Source of the DNA: Minisyncoccota bacterium
GTDB taxonomy: Bacteria; Patescibacteriota; Minisyncoccia; UBA11713; 2-01-FULL-45-33
DNA length: 45,065 nt
Direction of reading: 5' to 3'
NCBI GenBank assembly: GCA_036517275.1
Contig: DATDXD010000009.1
Span: 1 to 45,065 of the forward strand
Shown here: positions 4,746-44,572 of the stretch, piece after piece
How positions within the stretch are numbered: position 1 is the first letter of the stretch
Layout: every line of letters starts with the position of its first letter
The notes under the pieces: generated by a model
The model's input: only the letters and a program-made list of their open reading frames with translations
Told to the model about the DNA's origin: nothing
Databases searched by the model: none
Program-made: the position numbers and the translations under genes

Positions 4746-5698
4746 ACCTTCAAATACCTTTTTGTGGCAAACTGGGCTGAAAGCACGCCCAAAAGCGCCC
4801 CCGCGACAAGCAAAATAAACGATATTTGCAAAATGTTTGAAACAAAATAAGTATAAATATTTAAACCTCCAAAAGCGGATGCAATACGCTCCCCCGTCCA
4901 AAACAAAATTCCATAAAGAGCAAGAAGTGTAAACACGGCGGATATGAATCCGTGTATCAAACCTTCTATTAAAAATGGGCCCCGTATAAAAGAACGCGAG
5001 GCTCCAACCAATTGCATTACCGCAATTTCATCTTTGGAATTGTAAATCGCGACTCTTACGGTGTTGTACGCAACCATCAAAGCAATAAGAGCCAGGATTC
5101 CGCTCACTGAAAAACCTATCTTTCGGCTTACGCTCAAGACATTTGAAAGTTTGTTTATGGCTTCTTCATTTTGGCGAAAAGTAATTTTTTGCTTTCCCAT
5201 AGAGTCTATATCTATAAGACTTGAGTAAGCGCTGGCTTCTATAAATCTGGTGATGTCCTCAAATTTATCGGTACTTTTGGCGTTGATATCCAGATTTGCC
5301 GAAAAAGGATTATTTTCAACAGTTTCTATTGAACGTAAAATCAAAGTGTCTCCTTTGTGGCGCCCCAAAAAACTCTCCAAAGCCTTTTCTTTTGAAACAT
5401 AAGACACGCTTTTTACATTTATATTTGATTCTAAATCTTCTTTAAAAGATAGAATTTTTTCTTCCGGAGAATCAAGCTTAAAGTAAACGCTTATATCCAC
5501 CTTGTCTTCAACTCCGGATATAATTCCATTTACAAAAATGCCCCCAACCAAAACTCCGCCAAAAACAAGCATAGAAAGCGACATTACCAAAACAGTGGCA
5601 ACGCTTATAAGTCCGCCTCGAAAAAATTTAGTGATTCCGCTTTTTAAAATTCTTTGAAATGTAATTTTATTATAAGACATATTTTCCTTTTTGATCAT
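4742..5698 (-). CDS. ftsX: Cell division ABC transporter permease-like protein FtsX
   Basis: 318-aa ORF directly downstream of and overlapping ftsE. It has an N-terminal TM segment, a large extracytoplasmic loop and three C-terminal TM segments, which is the FtsX topology. The start may be the internal Met at 5680. Confidence 0.8.
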   Translation of the reverse strand: MIKKENMSYNKITFQRILKSGITKFFRGGLISVATVLVMSLSMLVFGGVLVGGIFVNGIISGVEDKVDISVYFKLDSPEEKILSFKEDLESNINVKSVSYVSKEKALESFLGRHKGDTLILRSIETVENNPFSANLDINAKSTDKFEDITRFIEASAYSSLIDIDSMGKQKITFRQNEEAINKLSNVLSVSRKIGFSVSGILALIALMVAYNTVRVAIYNSKDEIAVMQLVGASRSFIRGPFLIEGLIHGFISAVFTLLALYGILFWTGERIASAFGGLNIYTYFVSNILQISFILLVAGALLGVLSAQFATKRYLKV

Positions 5699-6350
5699 CT
5701 CTTATTAATTTTCCTTTGTCTAAAGTAATAACTCTTTTTTTAAGAGAATCTATAACACCCTTATCGTGAGTCGCCAAAATAACAGTAGTACCAAGAACAT
5801 TTACCTTTTCAAGTAAATTTATTATCTCCCAAGTATTTTTTGGATCCAAATTTCCGGTAGGCTCATCCGCCACCAAAACATCTGGACGCACAATTATGGC
5901 ACGAGCTATGGCTACCCTTTGCTTTTCTCCACCAGAAAGCTCGTGCGGAAAATGCCAAGCTTTATCCATAAGCCCCACCAACTCCAGCACATGTGGGACA
6001 TCTCTTTGAATTTCCTCATCGGATTTTCCGGAAGCCTCCATTGCAAAAGCCACATTTTCAAAAGCTGTTTTGTGCGACAACAAACGATAATCCTGAAAAA
6101 CTATTCCTATTCTGCGTCGTATTAAAGGAAGTTCTTTTTGATCAAGAGTATGAACATCGTGGGATTCAAAAAAAACATTGCCAGAAGTTGGCTTTTCTTC
6201 CGCAAGCAAAAGTTTAATAAGTGTAGACTTCCCCGCTCCCGACTGACCCACAATAGAAACAAACTCGTTTGGAGCGACAGTAAACGAAACATCATCAAGC
6301 GCGATTGAGGTGGGAGAATACACTTTGGAAACTTTATCGAAGTAAATCAT
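5670..6350 (-). CDS. ftsE: Cell division ATP-binding protein FtsE
   Basis: 226 aa with Walker A GQSGAGKST, ABC signature LSGGEKQR and Walker B VLVADEPTGNLD. It is paired with the ftsX-like gene. Confidence 0.9.
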   Translation of the reverse strand: MIYFDKVSKVYSPTSIALDDVSFTVAPNEFVSIVGQSGAGKSTLIKLLLAEEKPTSGNVFFESHDVHTLDQKELPLIRRRIGIVFQDYRLLSHKTAFENVAFAMEASGKSDEEIQRDVPHVLELVGLMDKAWHFPHELSGGEKQRVAIARAIIVRPDVLVADEPTGNLDPKNTWEIINLLEKVNVLGTTVILATHDKGVIDSLKKRVITLDKGKLIRDDQKGKYVL

Positions 6351-6357
6351 GTAATAC

Positions 6358-7426
6358 TTATAAGTTTAGTCCTGCTTCTATAAACATGTCCAGACCCCCG
6401 TCTAAAACTTTTTCCACATTGCCTGTTTCAATGTTTGTGCGATGGTCTTTGACCATTTTGTAAGGATGAAAAACATACGAGCGTATCTGGTGACCCCATT
6501 CTATTTTTTTGTATTCACCTTTTACCGCCATTTTTTCTTCCGTTTTTTTATGTAATTCCAGTTCATAAAGCTTTGAGCGCAAAATATCTAAAGCGGATTT
6601 TTTGTTCGCGATTTGCGTCCGTTCGGAACTTGCGTGCACGGAAATTCCGGTTGGCTTATGTGTTATACGCACAGCCGTTTCTCTTTTGTTAACATTCTGT
6701 CCACCGGGTCCGCTTGAACGCGAAAAACTTATTTCCAAATCATCGTCTTTTATTTCCACATCATCTGTATCTGAAACAAAAGGCAGAATTTCAACAAGAG
6801 CAAAAGAAGTATGCCGTCTTTTACTCGCGTCAAAAGGAGAAATTCTAACAAGGCGGTGAACCCCGTTCTCATTTTTTAAATAGCCGAACGCAAAACGTCC
6901 AGAAATTTTTGCGGATGCGTTTTTTATTCCCCCAAACTCATTTGGATGAGTATGTAAATTTTTAAAATCCCAATTTTTTGACCGAGCAAATTTTTCATAC
7001 ATTAAAAACAAAATCGCCGCCCATTCTTCCGCGTCATCTCCTCCGGCACCCGAATAAACATTGAGGATCGCGTCTCCGGAATCATACTTGTCAACAAACA
7101 AAGAAATTCTTTCAAGATTGACAAATTGACGTTCAATTTCCGCGGATTCTTTGTTTAGATCAATATTGGAATCAATTTTTGAAAGCTCCAACAAGCTTGC
7201 TGTATCTCCCAACAATTTTTCCCATGAAGAAATTTCTTCTTTTTTTTGAGAAATCTCTGAAGAAATTTTTTGCGCGCGCAAATTGTCGCTCCAAAATCCT
7301 TCTTTTAGAGTTTCTTGTTCAAGTTTAATTAAATCTTCTTTTTTTTGACGCAGGTCAAAGACGGTCCGCCGCTTTGCGGACCTTTTCGTTTAGTTCTTCA
7401 ATTTTTTGAATTTCTTTTTTATCCAT
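6358..7426 (-). CDS. prfB: Peptide chain release factor 2, requires a programmed +1 frameshift
   Basis: Frame 0 runs from ATG 7426 ([23 protein letters not shown]) to an in-frame TGA at 7357-7355. The +1 frame continues [14 protein letters not shown]... into the 307-aa track ORF. RF2-specific SPF (RISPFD) and GGQ ([10 protein letters not shown]) motifs are present. Confidence 0.95.
7354..7360 (-). other. prfB: RF2 +1 ribosomal frameshift site CTT TGA C
   Basis: The minus strand reads CGT CTT TGA CCT, with the canonical CUU UGA C heptamer at 7360-7354. The upstream GCGGCGGAC is only a weak SD-like element. Confidence 0.9.
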
Positions 7427-7433
7427 AACCACA

Positions 7434-7462
7434 ATTCTATCAAAATTAACAAAAAAAATCAA
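7434..7462 (-). promoter_or_regulatory. Putative prfB promoter (apparently leaderless transcript)
   Basis: Minus strand reads TTGATT (7462-7457), 17-nt spacer, TAGAAT (7439-7434), then 7 nt (TGTGGTT) to the ATG at 7426. No SD. Confidence 0.5.
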
Positions 7463-7471
7463 AACCTTTTG

Positions 7472-7544
7472 AGCCGCCTCCGAGATTCGAACTCGGGACC
7501 TCTGCTTTACGAAAGCATTGCTCTACCAGCTGAGCTAAGGCGGC
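7472..7544 (-). tRNA. tRNA-Thr (anticodon CGU)
   Basis: Hand-folded cloverleaf. Acceptor GCCGCCT/AGGCGGC, D arm GCTC-AGCTGGTA-GAGC, anticodon arm ATGCT-TTCGTAA-AGCAG, T arm CCGAG-TTCGAAT-CTCGG, discriminator T. CCA is not encoded. Confidence 0.9.
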
Positions 7545-7571
7545 TTATCCTAAAAAAATGTTACCTTAAAT

Positions 7572-7603
7572 ATTAAAAATCCGCTACTTTTTGTAGCGGA
7601 TTT
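7572..7603 (-). terminator. Intrinsic terminator after the CPBP protease gene
   Basis: Minus strand forms AAATCCGCTAC-AAAAA-GTAGCGGATTT followed by TTAATATTT. The hairpin overlaps the stop codon. Confidence 0.6.
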
Positions 7604-8316
7604 CATTGAAGAGCAATTGCCAAGAGTAAGGCTGAAAAATTAATTGCTGAATGTAAAATAATTGCTGGAATTACGCTTCCGGTGGCAATAGTAATTGTGG
7701 AAAAAATCGCCCCACCAGAAAACGTAGCCATGCGGTAAAAAAGATCGGCTTCGTGCCAAAATCCAAAAAATAAAGATGAACCAAAAAATGCCGCGTGCCT
7801 CCCAAAAATTCTATTTAGAGAGTAATAAAGAATCAGTCTAAACTCCAACTCTTGTTCTAAAACAGACAAAAATCCTATCCAAATTTTTAAAAAATAAATT
7901 TTTTTATCCCCCACAATCAAATTCATTTTAACAAAAAGAATATTCGCAACACCCGGCCAAAAAACTAACACCACATAAATACCTGTTACGAAGAATAGGA
8001 TTAATAACATTCTAAAATCTGCCTCAGAAAACTTCTTTTGCCAACTTGGAGGCCAATGGATTTCTATTCTGAAAATTCCCGTGTGAACAATGACAATAAA
8101 AAAAGTTGCCCACCAAAAAAATTTTTCTAACCCCAAAACCATTGAAGATGGATCGTGATCAAATCCAAAAACAAATCCTATCACTTCCAAAAACGGGACA
8201 AGCGCAACTCCAAAAATCAAAATCAAAATTTCAATTAAATTCAGCTTTTCAAATTCGTTGCGTATGCGGTCGTCATCTGCCCAAGACCAAAAATTTATTT
8301 TCTCTACCATACCCAC
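7603..8316 (-). CDS. CPBP (CAAX/Abi) family intramembrane metalloprotease
   Basis: 237-aa polytopic membrane ORF with family motifs EQELEFR, FGFWH and HSAINF. Confidence 0.75.
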   Translation of the reverse strand: MGMVEKINFWSWADDDRIRNEFEKLNLIEILILIFGVALVPFLEVIGFVFGFDHDPSSMVLGLEKFFWWATFFIVIVHTGIFRIEIHWPPSWQKKFSEADFRMLLILFFVTGIYVVLVFWPGVANILFVKMNLIVGDKKIYFLKIWIGFLSVLEQELEFRLILYYSLNRIFGRHAAFFGSSLFFGFWHEADLFYRMATFSGGAIFSTITIATGSVIPAIILHSAINFSALLLAIALQ

Positions 8317-8750
8317 CTCGCATGTGAAAAAGGCAAAAATACCAAAATTACGCGTTCGTGTATTTTTTCACCACGCACAGGTCCAAAATCACGCGAATCC
8401 AAAGAAACTACCATCTCGCCAAGCTCTTTGTTCCAATAACTTCCCTTAAAATCGCCCAGCACATAGTAATGATTAGCGGGAATAGTGTAGGAATTATATA
8501 TTTCTTCAATTTTTTCTCCCGGCAAACCAACTATCCTTTTAACCAACTTTATGTTTTCATTTTTAGGGTCATCCACAAAAAAAATACCAAATTTTTCCGG
8601 ATTAGAAAATCTTAAAAAAAGAAGCCAATCGCCGTCATTTAATGTGGGCATCATACTTTTGGATTCAACTCTGGAAATCCCAAAAAAAACATTTAAAAAA
8701 GATATCAAAAAAATAACGACAACAATCGGCACAAGCCTCTTGCGCGACAC
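8304..8750 (-). CDS. lepB: Signal peptidase I (S26), short paralog
   Basis: 148 aa with an N-terminal TM segment. Catalytic Ser box SKSMMPTL, Lys box VKRIVGLPGEKI, and a C-terminal box LGD...SLDSRDFGPV interrupted by an insertion. Overlaps the CPBP gene by 13 nt. Confidence 0.8.
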   Translation of the reverse strand: MSRKRLVPIVVVIFLISFLNVFFGISRVESKSMMPTLNDGDWLLFLRFSNPEKFGIFFVDDPKNENIKLVKRIVGLPGEKIEEIYNSYTIPANHYYVLGDFKGSYWNKELGEMVVSLDSRDFGPVRGEKIHERVILVFLPFSHARWVW

Positions 8751-8796
8751 AAAACACCACCTCTTTTCAAAGTTACCAGTCTGATTTCACGCTAAC

Positions 8797-8827
8797 ACAA
8801 AAACAAAAGAGCGGCTAGCGCCGCTCT
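8797..8827 (-). terminator. Intrinsic terminator after the SLT-like gene
   Basis: Minus strand forms AAGAGCGGC-GCTA-GCCGCTCTT followed by TTGTTTTTGT. It overlaps the TAG stop at 8815-8817. Confidence 0.7.
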
Positions 8828-15373: not shown

Positions 15374-17716
15374 TTATTGCCCCAAAAAAGAGCGAACGGA
15401 ACCGTCTTTGATTGGGGTTTCTTTTCGTTCATCCGGAGAGGGTCCTGGAGGAGATATGCCAAAAAGTGCGCTTTTTCCGGAATTGAGGTTAGACAAAATC
15501 TTTTCTATTTCTTCATTTCCTGGGTTTAAAGTGGAAATTTTTTCAAACTCCGCGATTGCGTCGTTTTTTCTTTTGGTCTTATCATAAATCAAACCCAAGA
15601 AATAACGAGCATTGGAATAATTAGGATTTATGGAAACCGTTCTCTTTAAAACAATTTCAGCGTCTTTAAGTCTGTTAGCTTTGTGATAAAGAAGTCCTAA
15701 TTGAAATAAGGTGCCAACATCGTTGGGAGAAATAAGCGCCGCCGCCTCACCTCCTTTTATTGCTCCTGCCGAATCTCCTTTTGCGTCAAAAATTTGCGCC
15801 AAAAGAAAATGCGCAGCGGCATAATCTGGTTTCAATTCAATTGCTTTTTCCAATTCTTTTTGTGCCATATCCAACAAAGAATTGTCTTTTTTATTTACAG
15901 CTTCCGAAATATAAACCAAAGCTTTGTCTCTAAAAAGAGAAGGGTTTTTGGGTGATCTTTTAAGTGCTTCGTCAAATTGAACAATTGCCGCGTCGCGCGA
16001 TCCTTCGGCATTTATTGAAACAAGAAAACGATAAATATTTCCCAAAGATCTGTAATTTTCAAAATCCATGGGCGATAGCCTAATTGCTTCCTGCGCGGTG
16101 GCTATTGACCCATCTAATGCGTCTTTGAATCTGGAATTCAAAAGTTCGGCGGGAGTCGCGCGGTCTTGCAAAACAAGTTGAGATTTAATGTTATAAATTT
16201 GTGAAAAAGAATTCATATAAACACTATTTCTGCTATCAACGCGCGAAGCTGAAACCAGCTTTTTTTCAGCAAGATCAAGATTGTTTTCCGAAAAAGCCTT
16301 GGCAGCTTGTGAAAAAAGAACCTGTCCAACATATTTTGAACCCGCCACGTAAAATCCGAAAATTCCGGCAATCATCAAAAGAACCATGGCCATGGCGGAA
16401 ACAAAACCCATAGAACCTTCTCCAAAAATCAAAATATCATAAACTTTAATCAAACCCCCAATACGCAAAGACGCCAAAAGAAAACCAATACTCAAAAATC
16501 CAAACACCAAAAGAGTATATCCAACGGGAAAAAACATCCACATTAAAACCGTATAACTAAACAAGAAAAACGAAGATAAAAACAAATTTTCTTTTTTTGC
16601 CACAACACTAACCAAATTAAGTCCCAGATACCACAAATAGGCGAGAAAACCCAAAAACAAAATCCAAGCAACCATGCCAACCTCCCCCAAAAGACTCAAA
16701 AGATACGATGAACCAGCATCAAATCTGGAAGCCCAAAAAACAGTGCGATTAACATCAGCCGGCTTATAAGAATCCCAAATATATCTAAAAGAAGTTGGTC
16801 CATTTCCAAAAATAATATTATCTTTTAGAGCGTCTTTTACAACGCGAAATGTCGCGCCATGCGAAACCCCAACCTCAACAGGAGAAGAAACACTAAGAAT
16901 ATTTGGAACAACGGATTTAAAAGTAAATCCAAAAACAGACAAAGATAAAAGCAATATACTCAAAAGGAGTGCGAAACCATCAACATGTCGCCTCCATATC
17001 GCATAACTTAAATAAACTAAGGCAAAAAAGCCCAAAAAGGCCCAAGAGAGCGGAAAACTAATTACAGCCATTATAAAAAGAAAGATCGCGAACAAAACAC
17101 CCAAAATCCATCTTTTTTTTCCGTCTGAACCTTGCGCCAAAAAAGCGTAAATCATCATCAAGAAAAAACCAGAAGCCAAACCAATGCTATTCCAAGAACC
17201 TATTGTATTAAAATTTTGATTAACAAAAACTCCACCCAAAAATTTTCCTAAACCAAAAATTGAAAAAATAATAAACAAGGCAAAAACAACGAAACCCGCT
17301 GAAAAAAAGAAAAATAATTTTTTAAGTGAAACTGTGTCTGAAAACAAAACAGCAATGAGCCATGAAAGCAAAAATAAAATAAAAACATTAAAAAAACTTG
17401 TGGTCTCCGCACCCACCCCAAAAATAGATTGGGGTCCGATACCTGAAAAAATTGACGATAAAAACCAAAACAAAAGAGTTGCGATAAAAAAAAGTAGAAC
17501 CCTGTGCGAAACCACGGTAATTTTCGCGCGTAAAATAGCATGGGTTAAATAAAAAATAAAAGAAGCGATGACAAGCGCGGAAACAAGCAAAACCTTATTA
17601 AATTCAACGGGCACCAAGGTTGTGGGTAAAAACCAAAAAGGCAACAAAAAAACAAGAAGTAAAATTGACCATTGAGCAAGTTTATAAAATCTATCTTCAT
17701 TATAAGTTGTATTCAT
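15374..17716 (-). CDS. Polytopic Wzy/O-antigen-ligase-like membrane protein with C-terminal TPR repeats
   Basis: About 780 aa. The N-terminal roughly 480 aa contain many TM segments. The C-terminal roughly 300 aa contain several TPR-like repeats (e.g. AAAHFLLAQIFDAKGDSAGAI, GTLFQLGLLYHKANRLKDAE, ARYFLGLIYDKTKRKNDAI). The start is set at Met28 of the track ORF, where TATAAT lies 7 nt upstream. Confidence 0.55.
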   Translation of the reverse strand: MNTTYNEDRFYKLAQWSILLLVFLLPFWFLPTTLVPVEFNKVLLVSALVIASFIFYLTHAILRAKITVVSHRVLLFFIATLLFWFLSSIFSGIGPQSIFGVGAETTSFFNVFILFLLSWLIAVLFSDTVSLKKLFFFFSAGFVVFALFIIFSIFGLGKFLGGVFVNQNFNTIGSWNSIGLASGFFLMMIYAFLAQGSDGKKRWILGVLFAIFLFIMAVISFPLSWAFLGFFALVYLSYAIWRRHVDGFALLLSILLLSLSVFGFTFKSVVPNILSVSSPVEVGVSHGATFRVVKDALKDNIIFGNGPTSFRYIWDSYKPADVNRTVFWASRFDAGSSYLLSLLGEVGMVAWILFLGFLAYLWYLGLNLVSVVAKKENLFLSSFFLFSYTVLMWMFFPVGYTLLVFGFLSIGFLLASLRIGGLIKVYDILIFGEGSMGFVSAMAMVLLMIAGIFGFYVAGSKYVGQVLFSQAAKAFSENNLDLAEKKLVSASRVDSRNSVYMNSFSQIYNIKSQLVLQDRATPAELLNSRFKDALDGSIATAQEAIRLSPMDFENYRSLGNIYRFLVSINAEGSRDAAIVQFDEALKRSPKNPSLFRDKALVYISEAVNKKDNSLLDMAQKELEKAIELKPDYAAAHFLLAQIFDAKGDSAGAIKGGEAAALISPNDVGTLFQLGLLYHKANRLKDAEIVLKRTVSINPNYSNARYFLGLIYDKTKRKNDAIAEFEKISTLNPGNEEIEKILSNLNSGKSALFGISPPGPSPDERKETPIKDGSVRSFLGQ

Positions 17717-17723
17717 AAAATTA

Positions 17724-17774
17724 ATTATAATCACATATTTATATTTTGCAATTATGGACAGGATTAAATACAAT
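17724..17774. promoter_or_regulatory. Back-to-back divergent promoters sharing one palindromic -35 hexamer
   Basis: Plus strand: TTGCAA (17746-17751), 17 nt, TACAAT (17769-17774), 8 nt, ATG 17783. Minus strand: the same TTGCAA, 16 nt, TATAAT (17729-17724), 7 nt, ATG 17716. Confidence 0.45.
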
Positions 17775-17782
17775 AAAAACAA

Positions 17783-18004
17783 ATGAAAAACAAGCAATAC
17801 CTAACCATAAAACAAGCGGCAAAAATAATAGGAGTAGCTGAACTTACGCTTAGAAACTGGGATAATTCCAAAAAATTTGAAGCCACTAGGCATCCTATAA
17901 ACAACTATAGGGTCTACGCTCTTGATCAAATAGATGAACTTATGAAAAAACTTGGCCGTAAAAGGGCTTCAAGAAAATTGGTAATCAAAGTGTTGGAGGA
18001 TTAA
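17783..18004 (+). CDS. Minimal MerR-family HTH DNA-binding protein
   Basis: 73 aa. LTIKQAAKIIGVAELTLRNWDNSKKFEATRHPINNYRVYALDQIDEL matches the MerR-type HTH/wing pattern (TLRxW...R...YRxY). There is no effector domain. Confidence 0.7.
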   Translation: MKNKQYLTIKQAAKIIGVAELTLRNWDNSKKFEATRHPINNYRVYALDQIDELMKKLGRKRASRKLVIKVLED

Positions 18005-18008
18005 ACAC

Positions 18009-18035
18009 AAACACCCCGATCAAATCGGAGTGTTT
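18009..18035. terminator. Hairpin between the convergent MerR-like gene and rnpB (possible bidirectional terminator)
   Basis: AAACACCCCGA-TCAAA-TCGGAGTGTTT. On the minus-strand RNA the single mismatch becomes a G-U pair. T-rich tracts follow on the plus strand. Confidence 0.45.
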
Positions 18036-18424
18036 GGTATCTTTGCTTATAAGCCGAATTCTGTCCCCGACCGAGGTCGGGGGATAGCCATCTGTCTGGG
18101 ATTGAGATTACTCTCAACCTCTAGCCCTCTTTCGAGGTTGCACCAGATAGGGTTTTCCTTTCCCGATGGTTACCCACCGGAACTGTGAGCTCTTACCTCA
18201 CTCTTTTCACCCTTGCTCTATCAACTTTTTTGGCTTTAGGCCAAAAATGATGACGTCAGCGGTATTGTCTCTGTGGCACTTTCCCGGTCACGGCGGCTGT
18301 TAGCCGCTACCTACTTCCTTTGACCAAGGTCAAAGGGGTGTTCGGACTTTCCTTTCCAAAAATATTGATATATCAAAATTTCAATATATTAATAATTCAG
18401 AACGGCTATCCAGCAAAGAACTAC
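18036..18424 (-). ncRNA. rnpB: RNase P RNA (bacterial type)
   Basis: The minus strand contains GGAAAGGAAAGTCCGAAC (P4 5' strand/CR-I), GGGTGAAAAGAGTGAGGTAAGAGCTCACAG (the GGUAAGAGC region) and ACAGAATTCGGCTTAT (P4 3' strand/CR-V). P1 pairs TCTTTGCT (18419-18412) with AGCAAAGA (18047-18040). P2 pairs GGATAGCC with GGCTATCC. Ends are uncertain by about 10 nt. Confidence 0.9.
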
Positions 18425-18427
18425 TAT

Positions 18428-18455
18428 AGTATAGCATTTTATTAAAAAAAGTAAA
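18428..18455 (-). promoter_or_regulatory. Putative rnpB promoter
   Basis: Minus strand reads TTTACT (18455-18450), 16-nt spacer, TATACT (18433-18428), about 7 nt upstream of the P1 5' strand. Confidence 0.45.
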
Positions 18456-18543
18456 TCCCCCCTCATCCATAAAACACTCTTTCAAAAATCTTTAAACTAG
18501 ATTATTGTATAAGAAGCGTTATTTGACAACAGGTGACCAAACA

Positions 18544-19161
18544 ATGAAAATACTGATTTTAGCAATGTTTTTATTGCAAGAACCAGCCCTATTGCCGATA
18601 CAACAGGGTCCAAACAACCCTCCATCCGTAAATGGATGGAAAAAGGTGACCGAAATACATTTAGAATTGAAAAATGTTATAAAATCTGGAGAAAAAACAA
18701 TGACGGCAACGTCTATTGTTGGATCCTTCCGAGTGCTTCAAAATCCAGAATTGGAAAGCGAATTTGTTTTTATGGTTTCAAAATATCCTCCTTTGACATT
18801 TGTTCCGCAATTACTACAATCCGCGGAAAATACTCGTGACGAAATGGTGGTGGCAGAAAATTATTTTCAAAAAGTAAAACAAGAAAAACTAAAAGAAATG
18901 ATAAAATTTTCAGATACTATTTTACTTATAAAATGGCGGGAGTCAAAAGATCTAAGAACCGGAGAAACGATTCTTCTGGGTCCAATTGAAAACTGGCTTT
19001 TAAACCAGCAGGGTAAGTGGATATTTGAATCAACCAACGACAAAACAATAAAAAGAGAACTCGTTAGCGAAGAGGATTTGCTTCTGGGATTCAAATTTTC
19101 TCTTAAAGAAAATTATCATATTTTAAGGTTAAATATGAGCCATTTAGGAGGCGAAAAATGA
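18544..19161 (+). CDS. Exported hypothetical protein
   Basis: About 205 aa starting at MKILILAMFLLQEP (hydrophobic N-terminus), with SD AGGTGA 7 nt upstream. No recognisable domain. Its stop overlaps the next ATG (ATGA). Confidence 0.55.
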   Translation: MKILILAMFLLQEPALLPIQQGPNNPPSVNGWKKVTEIHLELKNVIKSGEKTMTATSIVGSFRVLQNPELESEFVFMVSKYPPLTFVPQLLQSAENTRDEMVVAENYFQKVKQEKLKEMIKFSDTILLIKWRESKDLRTGETILLGPIENWLLNQQGKWIFESTNDKTIKRELVSEEDLLLGFKFSLKENYHILRLNMSHLGGEK

Positions 19162-20288
19162 GACACCAAATAAAGGTTTTTATTTTAATTGTCTTTTTAC
19201 TAATTTTAAACGGATGCGCAAAAAAGGTTCTTATGAAGTATGCTGAAACCGACACAATAAAAATGTGTGAGGAAAACTTTTACTCAAAATTTTATATGCA
19301 TTTTTCGGAAAACGAAAAAAATGAATTTAAAGAAATAAAAACATTGGGAGAGTGCCAAATTTTTATAGATACATTTTGGCAAAAACGCGACACAGACCCA
19401 TCAACTTCTGAAAATGAATATAAAACATTGCTTGAGAAAAGAGTCGAAGACATAGAAAAAGAGGTTCTGTTTCAAAACATGGATACGGCTGGATTTGCGT
19501 TTAAAGCAAGTGATGGATTTAAAGGAGATCCGGCAAAAATTTATATGCTACACGGCGCTCCTGACTTCACAAAAAAAATTGAAGGGCACACTTTTGTTAA
19601 TTTAATGGTTTGGATTTATGGAGATGAAAACGGAAAACACAGGTATAGATTCCTTTTTTATCAAAAAAACTCAATCCAATATGTAATTTTTTGGCCACAA
19701 TGGAATGGCTGGATAGCTATAGAAGAAATATCAAAAGACTTTGTAGAATTAGATGCGGTCTATGAGGAATTAATACAAAATGAGGGTGAAATATTTCTTA
19801 TTTCCATGATTTCTTTTTCTGATAACTCAAATATAACACCAGATAAGGCATTAAAACCGCCAAAACCAGCTTCAGAAATAGCAAAAGAATTGGCTCCAAA
19901 AATAAAAACTGAAACCCCGAAAACAGAAGAAATTGTAGTTGCAAACAGTTTTAATTCAACAATTCCAGCCGAATTTTCTTACGAAATAACAAACGATAAA
20001 TTAATTTTAAAATTAGAAATAAAACACGAGGATCTTGATTGGATTTTAAAAAACAACGAACTTGTTTCGGAATTGTTTATAAAAACAATTGTTTGGGATA
20101 AAGATCAAAAACACGAAGAGGAACACAATATAAATATTGTGTCCACAAAACAAAAAATTACCGAAAAAAACTCATTTTTCTTTTTTGAATCAAAACCAAT
20201 AACACTCGAGAGTGAAATAGTAAAAGCAAGTATTTACATAAAAAATAATCAAAAATACAATTCTTGGATTGAAGAAATAAAGAGATAA
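19158..20288 (+). CDS. Lipoprotein with a GWxTD-like domain (signature degenerated to GFKGD)
   Basis: 376 aa. The signal ends in LNGC (lipobox-like). The pattern FWQKRDTDP...NEY...RV...F...GFKGDPAKIYMLHGAPD...VWIY fits the GWxTD-domain consensus as I remember it. SD AGGAGG lies 6 nt upstream. Confidence 0.5.
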   Translation: MRHQIKVFILIVFLLILNGCAKKVLMKYAETDTIKMCEENFYSKFYMHFSENEKNEFKEIKTLGECQIFIDTFWQKRDTDPSTSENEYKTLLEKRVEDIEKEVLFQNMDTAGFAFKASDGFKGDPAKIYMLHGAPDFTKKIEGHTFVNLMVWIYGDENGKHRYRFLFYQKNSIQYVIFWPQWNGWIAIEEISKDFVELDAVYEELIQNEGEIFLISMISFSDNSNITPDKALKPPKPASEIAKELAPKIKTETPKTEEIVVANSFNSTIPAEFSYEITNDKLILKLEIKHEDLDWILKNNELVSELFIKTIVWDKDQKHEEEHNINIVSTKQKITEKNSFFFFESKPITLESEIVKASIYIKNNQKYNSWIEEIKR

Positions 20289-20292
20289 ATAA

Positions 20293-20333
20293 AATCCATT
20301 TAGGTGTCCAACACCTAAATGGATTATTTTTTT
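20293..20333. terminator. Bidirectional intrinsic terminator between convergent genes
   Basis: 15-bp perfect stem AATCCATTTAGGTGT-CCA-ACACCTAAATGGATT, flanked by A-run and T-run (ATTTTTTT downstream on the plus strand). Confidence 0.75.
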
Positions 20334-23316
20334 AAAAATTCCAACCTTTTGATATGTAGAAATCTGGAACTCGTTTTTTGAATTTTTCCAACTCTCTCCA
20401 AGCAAATACATAATTGAGACCAGCGAACTGAGCGCCAATTCCCAATGACACACCCTTTTGAACTGGAAATTTTTCGTTGCTGAATTTCGCAAGAGCGTAA
20501 TCCGCGAACAAAAAACTTCTTATTGGTCCCAAGGCAATTCCACCGGGAAAAACAACGGCATCAATAAAAGGAAAACGCAATTCCGCACTTCCATAAACAA
20601 CTTGATTTCCAGCAAGATATCCAAATGGGTAAGTTTTGAGAGTGGCATCTCCACCCATAATAATATAATCGCCCATCGCACGTGAACTTTGAAGACCACG
20701 CACATTAAACGCCAATAAACTTCCTTCACTTAACCTTTTATATCTCCTGTAGTCAAAAGAAAAGGTTGTATAACCCTTGGTATTTTTAAATCCCAAAGGA
20801 GGGGCAACTTCAAAGTTAAATCTTGCGGCATTACCATGAATTGGTCCTTGGGTAGCGTAAGAATACAAAACAGTATCTCTTACAAAAGAAGTGGAAAAAC
20901 TAGCATTGAAACCTTTAGAATTTTTGAAAAAGTTATAAAACTGTTTATCTGTGTCACTAAAATATTCTGGAGATTCCTCAATAACAGAATCGTCAATAAA
21001 TACTTCAAAATTTCTCTTTTCAAAACTAAACCCTGTTTCAACTCTTGTAAATTTACCGAAGAGATAACTCCCAAAAACATCCCCGCCAATTTCGTCTCCA
21101 ACAGTATAATTGAACAATGTTTGATTGGCATAACCTTTTATCGGATCCCATTTTAGATATTGAAGTGGTAACTTGTGGTTATAAAAATCAAAACCCCAAT
21201 TCAAACGCTTTTCGCGATTCAAATAACTAAAATCTATCAATCTAAAATAACTTCCATTAAACGCAAATCCAATTTGAAAAAGATTGTTTTCTTTAATATC
21301 CGAAATTCCTTTCAATCCATAACCAAACATTCCCCAATAATTACTTAACCCCAAACTTACTTCTCCTTCGGACATTTTCCATCTTTTAGGAGGAACAGTT
21401 TTATTTTTTATTTGATTCTCATCAATAACACTAGAAAATAAATTAAATGGTCTCCAAGCGTAAACCATGTTTTCCGCTCTTTTTTCTTCAGTATAAGAAT
21501 ACAGGGGTTCCTTAAATTTCAAACTATAAATTTCAAAATTTTTGTATATTTGATTTCTAAACTGGTCATACGGCCAAAAAACTATCGCCGCGATTTCTCC
21601 AGAAGAATCAGGAATTGGTTTTGGCAAAAAAGTTCCTCCAAAAAATTCCGTCCATTGCTTTACTTCTTTTGTTTCAATATCAATAGTAACAATATTCCAA
21701 GCGCTATTTCTTTCATCAGAAGTAAAAACAATAGTATGATCATCCAAAAAATACGGAGAATCTTCATTGTGCCTATTAAATGTCAGCTGACGCTTTTTCA
21801 TTGTTTCCAAATCAAGCAAAAATAACTTTTGAAAATCTCCATCAAACGCAACATATGCGATAATTTTTCCGTTTAGTGATATTGCAGGGGCAGTGTCAAA
21901 ATTTGAATCTTGAGTTAAATTTTTAAATTCCTGTGTCAAAAAATCAAATTCATAAATATCGCGGGTTGCGTTTTGAGACGCTGAAAAATAAATTTTCTTT
22001 CCGTCCGGACTAAAAGTGGGGGAAAAAGATTGGTCATATGGAATTTTAATTTTGGTAAACTTATTTTCTTTGTCCGCATCAACCAAAAATAATTCGTGAT
22101 CTCTTCCTTTTCTAGCAAAGAACGCGATTTGTTGACTAACGGGCGACCACGCAATATCCCCACCATTAAACGGCCAAGTATTTCCGCGCTGGGAAATAAC
22201 ATACTCAAAATCGTTTGGTGGAAAATGTGAAGTCAAATTTTTTATTTTTGAATCAGTACCACCAGACAAAGCATAAGTTATAACCGAAACACCATTTTTT
22301 TGAGGAGACAGAACCGCAACATCTTTTCCATCTGAAGAAAAGGTAAAAGACAAAATTCCGAATGGTAATTTACTATTGGTTATGTTTGTTCCTGAAAAAC
22401 TTTTTTCATTTTCGTAAGGCTTCTGGCTTAATCTCATTTCTTGGGCGTATTTGTTGCTCCAAAAATCTCTGTGTTTTCTATCAAACAATTCTGGATTTTT
22501 TTGCGGATCCGGAATATCTCCATTGGTTAGTTCTTCAATCAGCTTTCCAAGATTCTTTCCGGAACTTTTTATACCTTTTGTCTTAAACTCAACTCCAACA
22601 TGATATTTTTCTTCCAAAAATTCAAAAACCATTGCCCATTGCCCATAAGGGTCTGCTTGATCAGACATAAATCTTTCCCAAGTCGGCAAAAACAACTCTG
22701 GATTTCCAGCATCGGTGCGTTGATTAATTCGTCTTAAATCATCACGAGTATGCGGGACATAAAGAGAGGCGATAAATTCAGCTCCACCCTCTATAAATCC
22801 ATTGGGAAACGGTAATGTGCCAGTAGTTTTATTTAAAAAACCTCTTTTGAGAATACTGAACTGAAAACTATGCACAAGTTCGTGGACAACCATTGATTTC
22901 ATGAGTGGAAGAGAAAAATCGGCTTTTAGCACCATTCTATTTTTTTCGTTTTCAACAAAAGCGCCGACTCCTTCCGGTAAAAATTCCATAGTTATGTTTG
23001 TACTTTCAAACTCACTATGGGTTTTGTACATCATGATCGGAATTTTTTCTTTTATTTCAAGGTTAAAAAGAATACTCAAAGATAAATGAGCACTTTCCAA
23101 AATAGACAAAGTTTCTTCAAAAAATTTTTTTTGGGAAAAATCGTTCAAATCAAGAGAATGCCAAACTTCAAAATGCTCACTTTGGTAAAAATTCTGCAAA
23201 GATTTTTCATATACAACCTTGTTTTTTCCAAAAGGACCAAATTCATCCGTTTGCGCCAAAGCCTCAATCGGCAACAATACCAAAACAACAATCATCAAAA
23301 ACAACAGTTTCCTCAT
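20332..23316 (-). CDS. Large exported multidomain protein: MA-clan metallopeptidase-like domain + PD40/TolB-like beta-propeller + C-terminal Omp85-type beta-barrel
   Basis: 994 aa. Signal peptide ends ...IEALA/QT. HELVH followed by FIEGGAEF (HExxH...EGxAE gluzincin pattern). PD40-like repeats FSSDGKDVA, WSPVSQQIAF, FSPDGKKIYFSA, ISLNGKIIAYVA. The C-terminal roughly 350 aa show alternating beta-strand patterns with GGDATLKTYPFGYLAGNQVVYGSAELRFPF...FLFADYA...SLGIGAQF and a terminal ...KGWNF. SD GAGGTGA precedes the start. Confidence 0.6.
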   Translation of the reverse strand: MRKLLFLMIVVLVLLPIEALAQTDEFGPFGKNKVVYEKSLQNFYQSEHFEVWHSLDLNDFSQKKFFEETLSILESAHLSLSILFNLEIKEKIPIMMYKTHSEFESTNITMEFLPEGVGAFVENEKNRMVLKADFSLPLMKSMVVHELVHSFQFSILKRGFLNKTTGTLPFPNGFIEGGAEFIASLYVPHTRDDLRRINQRTDAGNPELFLPTWERFMSDQADPYGQWAMVFEFLEEKYHVGVEFKTKGIKSSGKNLGKLIEELTNGDIPDPQKNPELFDRKHRDFWSNKYAQEMRLSQKPYENEKSFSGTNITNSKLPFGILSFTFSSDGKDVAVLSPQKNGVSVITYALSGGTDSKIKNLTSHFPPNDFEYVISQRGNTWPFNGGDIAWSPVSQQIAFFARKGRDHELFLVDADKENKFTKIKIPYDQSFSPTFSPDGKKIYFSASQNATRDIYEFDFLTQEFKNLTQDSNFDTAPAISLNGKIIAYVAFDGDFQKLFLLDLETMKKRQLTFNRHNEDSPYFLDDHTIVFTSDERNSAWNIVTIDIETKEVKQWTEFFGGTFLPKPIPDSSGEIAAIVFWPYDQFRNQIYKNFEIYSLKFKEPLYSYTEEKRAENMVYAWRPFNLFSSVIDENQIKNKTVPPKRWKMSEGEVSLGLSNYWGMFGYGLKGISDIKENNLFQIGFAFNGSYFRLIDFSYLNREKRLNWGFDFYNHKLPLQYLKWDPIKGYANQTLFNYTVGDEIGGDVFGSYLFGKFTRVETGFSFEKRNFEVFIDDSVIEESPEYFSDTDKQFYNFFKNSKGFNASFSTSFVRDTVLYSYATQGPIHGNAARFNFEVAPPLGFKNTKGYTTFSFDYRRYKRLSEGSLLAFNVRGLQSSRAMGDYIIMGGDATLKTYPFGYLAGNQVVYGSAELRFPFIDAVVFPGGIALGPIRSFLFADYALAKFSNEKFPVQKGVSLGIGAQFAGLNYVFAWRELEKFKKRVPDFYISKGWNF

Positions 23317-23429
23317 AATTCACCTCATTTTCAACGTTCAAAATCTATCCAAAGAGTAACTTATATAAATACAAAATTCAACGGACCAAACAAAATAGAA
23401 AAAGTTGAAGGGTTATAGAAAATTTTTTA

Positions 23430-31382: not shown

Positions 31383-31928
31383 TTATTCGTTGATAATTAG
31401 AATATCTAAATTTGACAACGGCCAGAGACGCAAAAAAGCTCTGCCAGTAATGCTTTCTTTTTTGAGTGTGCCCCACAATCTGGAATCCGAGCTTCTGTCT
31501 CTGTTGTCGCCCAAAACAAAATACTCATTTTCGCCAAGACTAAAAGAAGAATCGGGATTAGTTTTTAGCCCTTCCGGTAAATATTTTTCATCCAAAATAA
31601 CTCTTTCGTTTCCGCCACCTAAAATTATTTTTCCGTTTTCAATCAAAACTTTTTCACCAGGCAAACCAACTATTCTTTTTATGAAAAAAATTCTCTGCCC
31701 TGTTGGTGGATGAAAAACTATCACATCTCCCCTTTGTGGTTCTTTGAATCTATATGAAATTTCATCAACTATCAAATATTCTCCGTCGCTGAAATTGGGT
31801 TCCATAGAATCCCCTTCCACAATAAACGGTTGCGCCACATAAGCGCGTATCGGAAAAACAATTGCCAGAGATATAACAAGGATTTTAACAAATTCAAAAA
31901 GGCTATTTTTCTTTTGTTCGGCTTCCAT
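31383..31928 (-). CDS. lepB: Signal peptidase I (S26), canonical paralog
   Basis: 181 aa with an N-terminal TM segment and motifs GDSMEPNF, IKRIVGLPGEKV, VLGDNRDRSSDSRLWG. Confidence 0.9.
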   Translation of the reverse strand: MEAEQKKNSLFEFVKILVISLAIVFPIRAYVAQPFIVEGDSMEPNFSDGEYLIVDEISYRFKEPQRGDVIVFHPPTGQRIFFIKRIVGLPGEKVLIENGKIILGGGNERVILDEKYLPEGLKTNPDSSFSLGENEYFVLGDNRDRSSDSRLWGTLKKESITGRAFLRLWPLSNLDILIINE

Positions 31929-44200: not shown

Positions 44201-44572
44201 ATGAAAAAACCATTGGCTATTTTAACTGTTTGGATGTTGCCTATTTTAGTATTTGCGCAAACAACTGGCAAACTAAGCGGAACAGCCGTTGGTAATTGGC
44301 TTGATATTATATTTGATATTGTAGGATTTGCCTCTTATCTTTTGATGGGAATAGCAACGGCAGTATTTTTGTGGGGAATGGTTAAATATATAATGGCTGG
44401 AGCGGATGAAAAAGCCAAAGAAGCGTCAAAGGGCTATATAAAAGCTGGAATAATCGGTTTGTTTTTATCTCTTGCGGTTTGGGGAATAGTATACGCAATA
44501 GCTAGAACATTTGATGTGGCAGATAGCGGAATACCGTTTGGTCCTGGGAACTTAGATCCGAGAAAACAATAA
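44201..44572 (+). CDS. VirB2/TrbC-like mini-pilin paralog with signal peptide
   Basis: 123 aa. Signal ends ...LVFA/QT. Core AVFLWGMVKYIMAGADEKAKEASKGYIKAGIIGLFLSLAVWGIV. C-terminal tail GIPFGPG. Promoter-like TTGCGC, 17 nt, TAACAT, then 6 nt to the ATG. Confidence 0.6.
   Translation: MKKPLAILTVWMLPILVFAQTTGKLSGTAVGNWLDIIFDIVGFASYLLMGIATAVFLWGMVKYIMAGADEKAKEASKGYIKAGIIGLFLSLAVWGIVYAIARTFDVADSGIPFGPGNLDPRKQ

Follow-up and report, generated by a model that had tools for sequence, protein, structure and literature searches.

The window, by which we mean the whole stretch of DNA analysed here, comprises 45,065 nucleotides of contig DATDXD010000009.1 (assembly GCA_036517275.1) from a Minisyncoccota bacterium of the Candidate Phyla Radiation (CPR); among its housekeeping genes lie three adjacent genes, labelled g1, g2 and g3, that form the subject of this study. 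An Omp85 barrel counts as a hallmark of the outer membrane, and in debates on how that membrane was gained and lost CPR bacteria serve as a monoderm group. An initial annotation of the window had nevertheless placed an Omp85 barrel and a GWxTD protein in a genome of this Patescibacteria type, and both proved to be encoded there. The g3 product joins a predicted zinc metallopeptidase domain to a TolB-like propeller and an Omp85-type barrel, g2 encodes a predicted GWxTD lipoprotein, and g1 belongs to a family found solely in CPR loci; the three probably make up an extracytoplasmic protease module native to this lineage. Its elements, with the genes taken from the list of open reading frames and recovered in the gene call of a second assembly (locus L001), are as follows.

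18544-19161, + strand: g1, 205 amino acids (aa)
19158-20288, + strand: g2, 376 aa
20293-20325, no strand assigned: hairpin with a 15-bp stem, a 3-nt loop and a T-run on each strand, between the convergent g2 and g3 stops
20332-23316, - strand: g3, 994 aa

The second assembly is a separate ENA record of the same organism (35,875-bp contig), in which an independent gene caller returned the identical trio with identical neighbours; the other loci compared bear handles such as L085, homologous proteins bear labels such as P0019 and P0047, and the organism labels of relatives are the depositors' own. The three open reading frames are thus as the initial annotation had drawn them, and the same is true of the coupling it proposed between g1 and g2, where the two reading frames share ATGA (19158-19161) and a GGAGG precedes the start of g2 by 6 nt, and of its 15-bp-stem bidirectional terminator, which the hairpin with its T-runs indeed looks like. 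It had also taken all three proteins to be exported, and an N-terminal export signal, judged by eye, is present in each.

The largest of the three proteins, g3, has more than 800 relatives in the database search, many of them aligned near full length, from which a family alignment of 77 sequences (48 of them CPR-type) was built. An AlphaFold2 (AF2) model computed from this alignment (predicted local distance difference test score, pLDDT, 88.6; predicted template modelling score, pTM, 0.85) shows three domains behind a signal peptide, all encoded on the - strand.

23254-23316, - strand: Sec-type signal peptide (aa 1-21, ...IEALA/QT), read from the sequence; a low-confidence N-terminal helix in the model
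22429-23199, - strand: gluzincin-type metallopeptidase domain (aa ~40-296), alpha/beta in the model
22870-22884, - strand: HELVH (aa 145-149) of the predicted zinc site
22789-22791, - strand: Glu176 of the same site
21481-22419, - strand: six-bladed PD40/TolB-like beta-propeller (aa ~300-612), with six four-strand groups in the DSSP string of the model
20335-21366, - strand: 16-stranded Omp85-type beta-barrel (aa ~651-994; strands aa 652-988), ending ...GWNF

Residues H145, E146, H149 and E176, corresponding to the zinc site of gluzincins, are invariant in 77/77 aligned sequences, and by its HExxH motif and downstream Glu the N-terminal domain is a predicted zinc metallopeptidase. A profile of the N-terminal 300 aa matches collagenase ColG in its peptidase domain (2.4e-5) as well as an M1 aminopeptidase (2.4e-4), and the homologue P0088 passes the Peptidase_MA_2 model (34.0 vs 32.4). 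Direct Pfam and NCBIfam scans of g3 itself yield only PD40/TolB-type repeats and a weak HExxH peptidase match, the Pfam scan giving for the peptidase domain only a sub-threshold match to DUF6782. The propeller is recognized at 48.9 bits by Pfam PD40, and resembles TolB both by sequence (7mx5_A, 6.7e-16) and by structure (Foldseek, 4r40_C, 4.8e-11). It is joined to the barrel in the model by a linker of ~40 aa with one short helix, and no POTRA domain was found in g3 or nine homologues by Pfam, or in the model.

The C-terminal part of g3, which had been read early on as an Omp85/BamA-type barrel ending in Phe, earns that assignment through its homologues, a family profile and the structure model, the window protein alone failing the Pfam Omp85 model. 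Full-length homologues pass PF01103 with 26-44 bits against a cut-off of 24 (P0019 39.4, P0047 41.8, P0078 44.2), one of them bearing the name Candidatus Yanofskybacteria, and the barrel-region profile matches BamA of F. nucleatum (4.5e-9) and E. coli (1.9e-6), setting the family motifs GGxxxLRGY and FxDxG on the loop-6 (SLRGY) and beta-13 (FADAG) motifs of BamA. Foldseek comparison of the modelled C-terminus with the PDB returned the BamA barrel (6fsu_B, 3.1e-10; template modelling scores of 0.58-0.61 on the target, with 0.61 for 6qgw_A) as well as the barrels of TamA, Sam50 and Toc75. These three lines of sequence and model evidence make a strong case for an Omp85-type barrel, and g3 as predicted is of the 'WD40-Omp85' architecture with an added peptidase domain.

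The g2 protein passes the NCBIfam GWxTD model TIGR04514 over aa 46-154 (38.5 bits, cut-off 28) and falls below the gathering score of Pfam PF20094 (21.2 vs 26.9 bits); the initial annotation had described it as a GWxTD-like lipoprotein. An iterated, jackhmmer-type search started from a canonical GWxTD protein (locus L064, 112 bits) reaches g2 at 1e-57, and one homologue in the database carries the title 'GWxTD domain-containing protein [Patescibacteria group bacterium]'. Its features are these.

19215-19217, + strand: lipobox Cys20 (...LILNG-C), read from the sequence
19293-19619, + strand: GWxTD domain (aa 46-154)
19965-20282, + strand: C-terminal beta-sandwich domain (aa ~270-375), from the AF2 secondary structure

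A signal peptide and lipobox Cys make g2 a predicted lipoprotein; the Cys is aligned in 14 of the 15 N-terminally complete homologues, and the Asn at lipobox position -2 is atypical. The literal GWxTD motif is absent and reads GFKGD, with G(F)xG(D/E/N) in the CPR homologues. In the AF2 model (pLDDT 70.7) an alpha/beta (helical/beta) GWxTD domain is followed by a disordered linker and the C-terminal beta-sandwich, for which Foldseek found just generic Ig-like or macroglobulin-like matches (E >= 1e-3), none of them on the GWxTD domain. A phmmer search of g1 and g2 against PDB sequences gave nothing meaningful, and a full-text literature search for GWxTD returned no papers, the function of the family being undescribed.

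For g1, which the initial annotation had called an unrecognisable secreted protein, that description stands: there is no Pfam, NCBIfam or PDB match, and ten g1 homologues are likewise without a Pfam match. An exhaustive HMMER scan of 1.84 billion representative proteins recovered 56 relatives, nearly all of ~150-250 aa (the exceptions being two short fragments and one marginal match of 1389 aa, E=8.8e-4), and a hydrophobic N-terminal signal is present in 11/11 aligned members. The family was found solely in CPR loci and, wherever the contig gave enough flank, each time beside g2 and g3. We also considered g1 as a diverged form of the ~220-aa lipoprotein encoded at diderm g3 loci, and rejected this at an hhalign probability of 1.5%.

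On its GyrA sequence the host is a member of the Parcubacteria (CPR) nearest to Giovannonibacteria. The nearest named relatives are Candidatus Giovannonibacteria and 'Parcubacteria group' metagenome-assembled genomes (76-79% identity), followed by Niyogibacteria, Ryanbacteria and Sungbacteria at ~65%, and among the best 120 matches every taxon-level name is a Patescibacteria lineage, with two labelled only 'bacterium'. VirB2-like pilins are typical of Patescibacteria, and two genes for type IV secretion system (T4SS) pilins in the window (PF18895; 42607-43479, + strand, 41.2 bits; 44201-44572, + strand, 37.8 bits) support the assignment. Such T4SS pilins have been described for Patescibacteria, whose T4SS belongs to the monoderm type (PMC12102498), CPR genome surveys found no TonB-ExbBD and no PilQ, with microscopy pointing to the absence of a Gram-negative envelope (PMC6744442), and the literature sets CPR in a 'monoderm clade' with Chloroflexi. 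GyrA relatives, pilins and envelope literature therefore agree with the premise of a monoderm host of Patescibacteria type from which the initial annotation had started.

That annotation had further drawn a contrast in base composition between module and surroundings, which was overstated. G+C content is 34.5% in g1, 30.0% in g2 and 34.6% in g3, against 32-44% in the other 23 genes of the window, and it is equally low in murJ (34.3%), in the gene labelled hyp175 (32.2%) and in the M50 and CPBP genes. Relative synonymous codon usage of the trio correlates with that of the rest of the window at 0.61-0.79 (window range 0.48-0.86), and the tetranucleotide correlation of 5-kb windows over the module is 0.977-0.983 vs 0.948-0.989 elsewhere. 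Since all three measures lie inside the window range, composition shows no sign of a foreign origin.

The surroundings of the module are conserved, and its junctions recur in independent assemblies and in related species. The order ftsA/ftsZ, nrdJ, one variable gene, g3 converging on g2 and g1, and then a tetratricopeptide repeat (TPR) gene, murJ and lepA is kept in L085/L086, where g3 is 59% and GyrA 86% identical to the window, and in L087/L088 (g3 45%, GyrA 78%), the divergence of g3 following the housekeeping divergence seen in GyrA. The three genes are adjacent in every CPR locus with enough flank (L002-4, L006-L010, L053, L082, L090 and L091). In distant CPR bacteria (named Yanofskybacteria and several third-party annotation bins; g3 32-42% identical) they are co-directional in the order g3-g1-g2, upstream of dnaG-rpoD. 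Because the trio stays together at two different loci and in two arrangements, it moves as a unit, and g3 is inverted in the lineage of the window. The initial annotation had counted conservation of the module at this locus across the whole lineage as an observation that would speak against its reading; such conservation holds within the sub-clade of the window, and does not extend to the distant CPR with their dnaG-rpoD locus.

Outside CPR the g3 family is mainly one of Acidobacteriota-type bacteria. A scan with one genome per species gave at least 599 matched stretches, of which at least 568 encode a g3 relative; among the 80 matches listed, nine are CPR-type and most others bear Acidobacteriota-type labels (Vicinamibacterales, Holophagales, Aminicenantes, Polarisedimenticolia, Thermoanaerobaculia). 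In a distance-based neighbour-joining tree of 78 full-length proteins, a simple method in which the midpoint root is only inferred, all 11 CPR sequences fall into a single clan in 100/100 bootstraps, with the Acidobacteriota-labelled pair L011/L012 as its sister. This pattern suggests that the CPR copies stem from one old acquisition from an Acidobacteriota-type source. Depositor labels look unreliable in places, as several of the acidobacterial-type records L033, L034, L040, L052, L059, L062, L066 and L078 are titled Bifidobacteriaceae, Eubacteriales, cyanobacterium or Acidimicrobiia, and Saccharibacteria stands in the titles of the CPR-type loci L007-L009 and L082.

The partners of g3 differ between the two groups. 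Searches with profile hidden Markov models and jackhmmer found no GWxTD neighbour of the g3 homologue in 69/70 diderm loci, and no g1 counterpart was detectable in the 70. The sole diderm locus that links GWxTD to the g3 family is L064 (Aminicenantes), in which 2690-8823 (+ strand) encodes, co-directionally, a protein with GWxTD and TPR (717 aa; 112 bits on TIGR04514), a small lipoprotein with TPR, another lipoprotein of 218 aa and the WD40-Omp85 peptidase. This leaves the pairing of g1 with GWxTD as, in essence, a feature of CPR. In 12/70 diderm loci (L005, L011, L013, L019, L032, L040, L041, L052 and L064 among the examples) the g3 homologue comes after a small TPR lipoprotein and a second lipoprotein of ~220 aa, one of the latter carrying a Pfam FlgT_M match. 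Diderm g3 loci also have a divergent upstream anti-sigma-like gene (in 24) and a downstream TPR and aspartyl-protease-like gene (in 23).

Whether the barrel is maintained in CPR can be judged from its constraint. Mean pairwise identity of the barrel is 41% among CPR-type sequences and 38% among the others, compared with 43% and 50% for the peptidase domain and 49% and 42% for the propeller. The C-terminal residue is F, W or Y in 77/77 aligned sequences, including 48/48 CPR-type ones, and the 16 strands keep a hydrophobic/polar alternation, with Kyte-Doolittle means for outward/inward positions of 0.82/-0.87 in CPR and 1.16/-0.89 in the others by a crude, sequence-only measure. Omp85 proteins typically carry a loop-6 motif, (V/I)RG(F/Y), and a beta-13 motif, (F/G)xDxG; the CPR consensus has LRGY in L6 and FxDxG in beta-13, and the family consensus reads GG...LRGY and RG..F.D.G.

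A second outer-membrane-type barrel is encoded next to g3 in a relative. PagL is an outer-membrane lipid A deacylase, and a PagL-family protein of 194 aa (PF09411, 61.8 bits vs 23) is encoded at L087:9321-9905 (- strand), between nrdJ and the g3 homologue, with a signal peptide and a HYSN motif that we take to be that of the catalytic site. To our knowledge CPR bacteria are not known to make lipid A, which makes a PagL there odd. The gene was seen in three assemblies (L087, L088, L089); neither the window nor the other loci examined contain it, and a metagenome scan with the protein gave the same contig again and nothing else. Because the barrel is conserved, its terminal aromatic residue, strand alternation and motif consensus are kept in CPR, and a PagL-family barrel accompanies it in a relative, we regard the barrel as functional and probably lipid-embedded in CPR. 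By Pfam, no Bam, Lpt, Lol or Tol-Pal genes were found in the ~250 kb of CPR sequence examined. By stating that the module implies an outer membrane, the initial annotation claimed more than the evidence carries.

The closest described class is that of the WD40-Omp85 proteins, defined by Heinz and Lithgow in 2014 as a subfamily of the Omp85/TpsB superfamily in a survey of Gram-negative genomes (PMC4104836). Like these, g3 has a 16-stranded Omp85 barrel preceded by a TolB-like propeller in place of POTRA domains; unlike them, as far as the portion of that survey available to us goes, which makes no mention of such a domain, the g3 family has an invariant N-terminal gluzincin domain, and unlike the surveyed proteins g3 is found in a CPR host regarded as monoderm and is locked to g1 and a GWxTD protein. 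With BamA, TamA and Sam50 it shares the barrel fold, the aromatic C-terminus and the family-consensus loop-6 and beta-13 motifs, but it is without POTRA and without BamB-E or TamB-like neighbours, the window protein reads LKTY and FADYA at the two motifs, and there is no sign of an insertase role. The six-bladed PD40 propeller is like that of TolB by sequence and structure, whereas g3 reaches 83.4 bits on the NCBIfam TolB equivalog TIGR02800 (cut-off 343), matched in the propeller region only, the N-terminal domain of TolB is absent, and no Pal or TolQRA genes lie near g3.

An enzyme domain N-terminal to an Omp85 barrel recalls the type Vd autotransporter PlpD (patatin-POTRA-Omp85); g3, however, has no patatin or POTRA match in Pfam, and its folded propeller is an unlikely passenger. 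The HExxH and Glu site is like that of collagenase-type gluzincin proteases, and precomputed Pfam matches to Tricorn_N and Tricorn_2nd fall on the propeller, but Tricorn is a serine protease with no barrel; the likeness to it lies solely in the notion that a propeller controls access to the protease. Within the GWxTD family (TIGR04514/PF20094), g2 keeps the FWxxRDxDPxTxxNE and GxxGD...LHGxPD blocks that are invariant or nearly so in its family alignment; it departs from canonical members in its GFKGD, and linkage to a WD40-Omp85 protein, found in 1/70 diderm loci, is seen in all CPR loci. The WD40-Omp85 class and the catalogued GWxTD domain were thus already known, and a literature search for Omp85/BamA in CPR and for Yanofskybacteria with outer membrane found no paper describing the module; as far as that search shows, the conservation of the class in CPR, the fixed three-gene module and a peptidase domain invariant in the family appear to be new.

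The flanks noted by the initial annotation (rnpB, a minimal MerR-type helix-turn-helix gene and a 113-nt gap between g3 and nrdJ) are all in place, and so are its housekeeping surroundings, the remaining genes being cshA, pcrA/uvrD, ftsEX, prfB, lepA, murJ, nrdJ, ftsZ, ftsA, hisS, lepB, pth, mfd, rpsA and gyrA.

17783-18004: MerR/HTH_17 gene, 73 aa
18034-18421, - strand: rnpB (RNase P RNA, class A, 181.8 bits)

A hairpin with a 13-bp stem (18008-18036), terminator-like on the minus strand, separates the helix-turn-helix gene from the 3' end of rnpB. The gene at 15374-17797 (- strand), which adjoins murJ and is conserved beside the module locus in L085 and L087, encodes an 807-aa polytopic membrane protein with C-terminal TPR repeats that may be an O-antigen-ligase-like envelope protein. 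For prfB (6358-7281, - strand, TTG start) the RF2 model is matched only from model position 42, the N-terminal part probably lying in another frame through the usual programmed +1 frameshift. A 909-aa PcrA/UvrD-like helicase (2016-4745, + strand) has C-terminal AddB/Cas4-type nuclease matches (aa ~650-906), suggestive of a helicase-nuclease fusion. Signal peptidase I (S26) is encoded twice in the 45 kb, by separate genes (8304-8750 and 31383-31928, both - strand); the product of the former is short (148 aa) and matches the family model in its N-terminal half alone.

Taken as a whole, these observations are probably best explained, in a judgement we hold with some but not great confidence, by a native, lineage-conserved and anciently acquired extracytoplasmic protease module of a Parcubacteria bacterium, anchored by an Omp85 barrel and accompanied by a GWxTD lipoprotein and a CPR-specific partner. 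The Sec pathway would export g3, and g1, through translational coupling, would be made at a set ratio to g2. The Omp85 barrels of BamA and SonA are reported to insert themselves into liposomes (PMC13018214), and by analogy the g3 barrel could plausibly insert itself into a lipid layer outside the cytoplasm, where it would keep the propeller-gated protease in the wall space to cleave envelope proteins or captured proteins and peptides. The other two proteins would serve g3 as tether, regulator, substrate adaptor or assembly aid; and after one old acquisition from a mainly acidobacterial family the module would have been inherited and rearranged within CPR. The data show what the domains are, that the catalytic residues are intact, that the barrel is under constraint, that the module is conserved and native, and that the host is a CPR bacterium; we infer the protease role, the partnership of g1 and g2 with g3 and, above all, the membrane that would hold the barrel. 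Several observations weigh against this explanation: CPR surveys and microscopy report no outer membrane in which the proposed barrel could be anchored; the window g3 by itself has no Pfam Omp85 match at E<=1, and no Omp85, ShlB or POTRA match in the Pfam and NCBIfam scans; its L6 (LKTY) and beta-13 (FADYA) motifs are degenerate; the partner roles of g1 and g2 rest solely on adjacency and coupling, and the diderm loci offer no g1 counterpart and, but for one, no GWxTD neighbour; and the tree behind the single acquisition is of a simple kind with an inferred root.

Other explanations differ from this one mainly in where they put the barrel. It is unlikely, in our judgement, that the barrel has left the membrane and serves as a soluble or wall/S-layer-associated scaffold, or else sits in the cytoplasmic membrane, the module then being a secreted protease with two accessory proteins: this would be the simplest fit of a barrel with a monoderm envelope, and it accords with the degenerate motifs of the window protein and with lipid-facing positions that are slightly less hydrophobic in CPR (0.82 vs 1.16), but 48/48 CPR-type sequences keep strand alternation and the terminal aromatic, conservation of the barrel is on a par with that of the catalytic domain, and in the cytoplasmic membrane a barrel of 16 strands would be a leakage risk. 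GWxTD proteins are otherwise mostly found in diderms, which lends something to the thought that the sub-clade owns a second lipid membrane, complete or patchy, with g3 as a true outer-membrane protein and g2 as an outer-membrane lipoprotein. An unrecognised envelope compartment was among the three readings offered by the initial annotation, and such a compartment may exist. A barrel as constrained as in diderm homologues, with its terminal aromatic and amphipathic strands, and the PagL-like barrel beside g3 in a relative (three assemblies) point the same way. We consider such a membrane decidedly unlikely, given the lack of TonB-ExbBD and PilQ in CPR surveys and of a Gram-negative envelope in microscopy (PMC6744442), the monoderm type of the CPR T4SS (PMC12102498), the lack of Bam, Lpt, Lol and Tol-Pal genes in the CPR sequence examined, and a g3 family that appears acquired, not ancestral.

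The membrane could also be that of another cell. We know of no precedent for a barrel that inserts from outside into a lipopolysaccharide leaflet, the module has no linked secretion system, and the PagL-like gene is missing from the window and the other loci examined, so we hold it quite improbable that g3 is a secreted epibiont effector whose barrel enters the outer membrane of a diderm host as tether or pore, with protease and propeller at the interface and, in some relatives, a PagL-like enzyme acting on host lipid A. Arguing for it are the epibiont lifestyle widely described for CPR (PMC12102498, PMC6744442), the presence of a PagL-like gene next to g3 in bacteria not known to make lipid A, and the self-insertion of Omp85 barrels into bilayers in vitro (PMC13018214). 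The initial annotation had offered horizontal acquisition and a mis-binned or chimeric contig as further readings. That the module is a recent horizontal island, or an assembly or binning chimera of diderm DNA and a CPR contig, is scarcely credible: the module lies 3-8 G+C points under highly expressed neighbours and its families are typical of diderms, but composition, codon usage and tetranucleotides are within the window range, the CPR proteins form one deep clan, and g3 divergence follows that of GyrA. We reject a mis-binned or chimeric contig on the identical junctions in independent assemblies and related species, and a recent acquisition on the normal composition and on a locus that is conserved, with its housekeeping flanks, where g3 is only 59% and 45% identical; what stands of the horizontal reading is an old, single acquisition from an Acidobacteriota-type lineage.

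Set against these alternatives, the proposed anciently acquired, barrel-anchored protease module matters in several ways. In it an Omp85-family protein has remained constrained over deep divergences within CPR, tied to two partner genes, and it offers a clonable handle on the envelopes of uncultured Parcubacteria and on Omp85 function without BAM (beta-barrel assembly machinery), Lpt and Lol. The uncharacterised GWxTD domain gains its first conserved genomic partner, and a peptidase domain is added to the little-studied WD40-Omp85 class. A broader and rather doubtful proposal is that a CPR sub-clade, made up of Yanofskybacteria-type lineages and the Giovannonibacteria-like lineage of the window, uses a second bilayer, an outer-membrane-like one of its own or the outer membrane of a host, into which it would place an Omp85-barrel protease capable of self-insertion, aided by a GWxTD lipoprotein and a partner specific to CPR; were this so, not all CPR would be monoderm, or epibiont attachment would involve the insertion of a barrel. 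With such a module conserved in it, either the envelope of this CPR bacterium or its contact with a host probably differs from what has been assumed.

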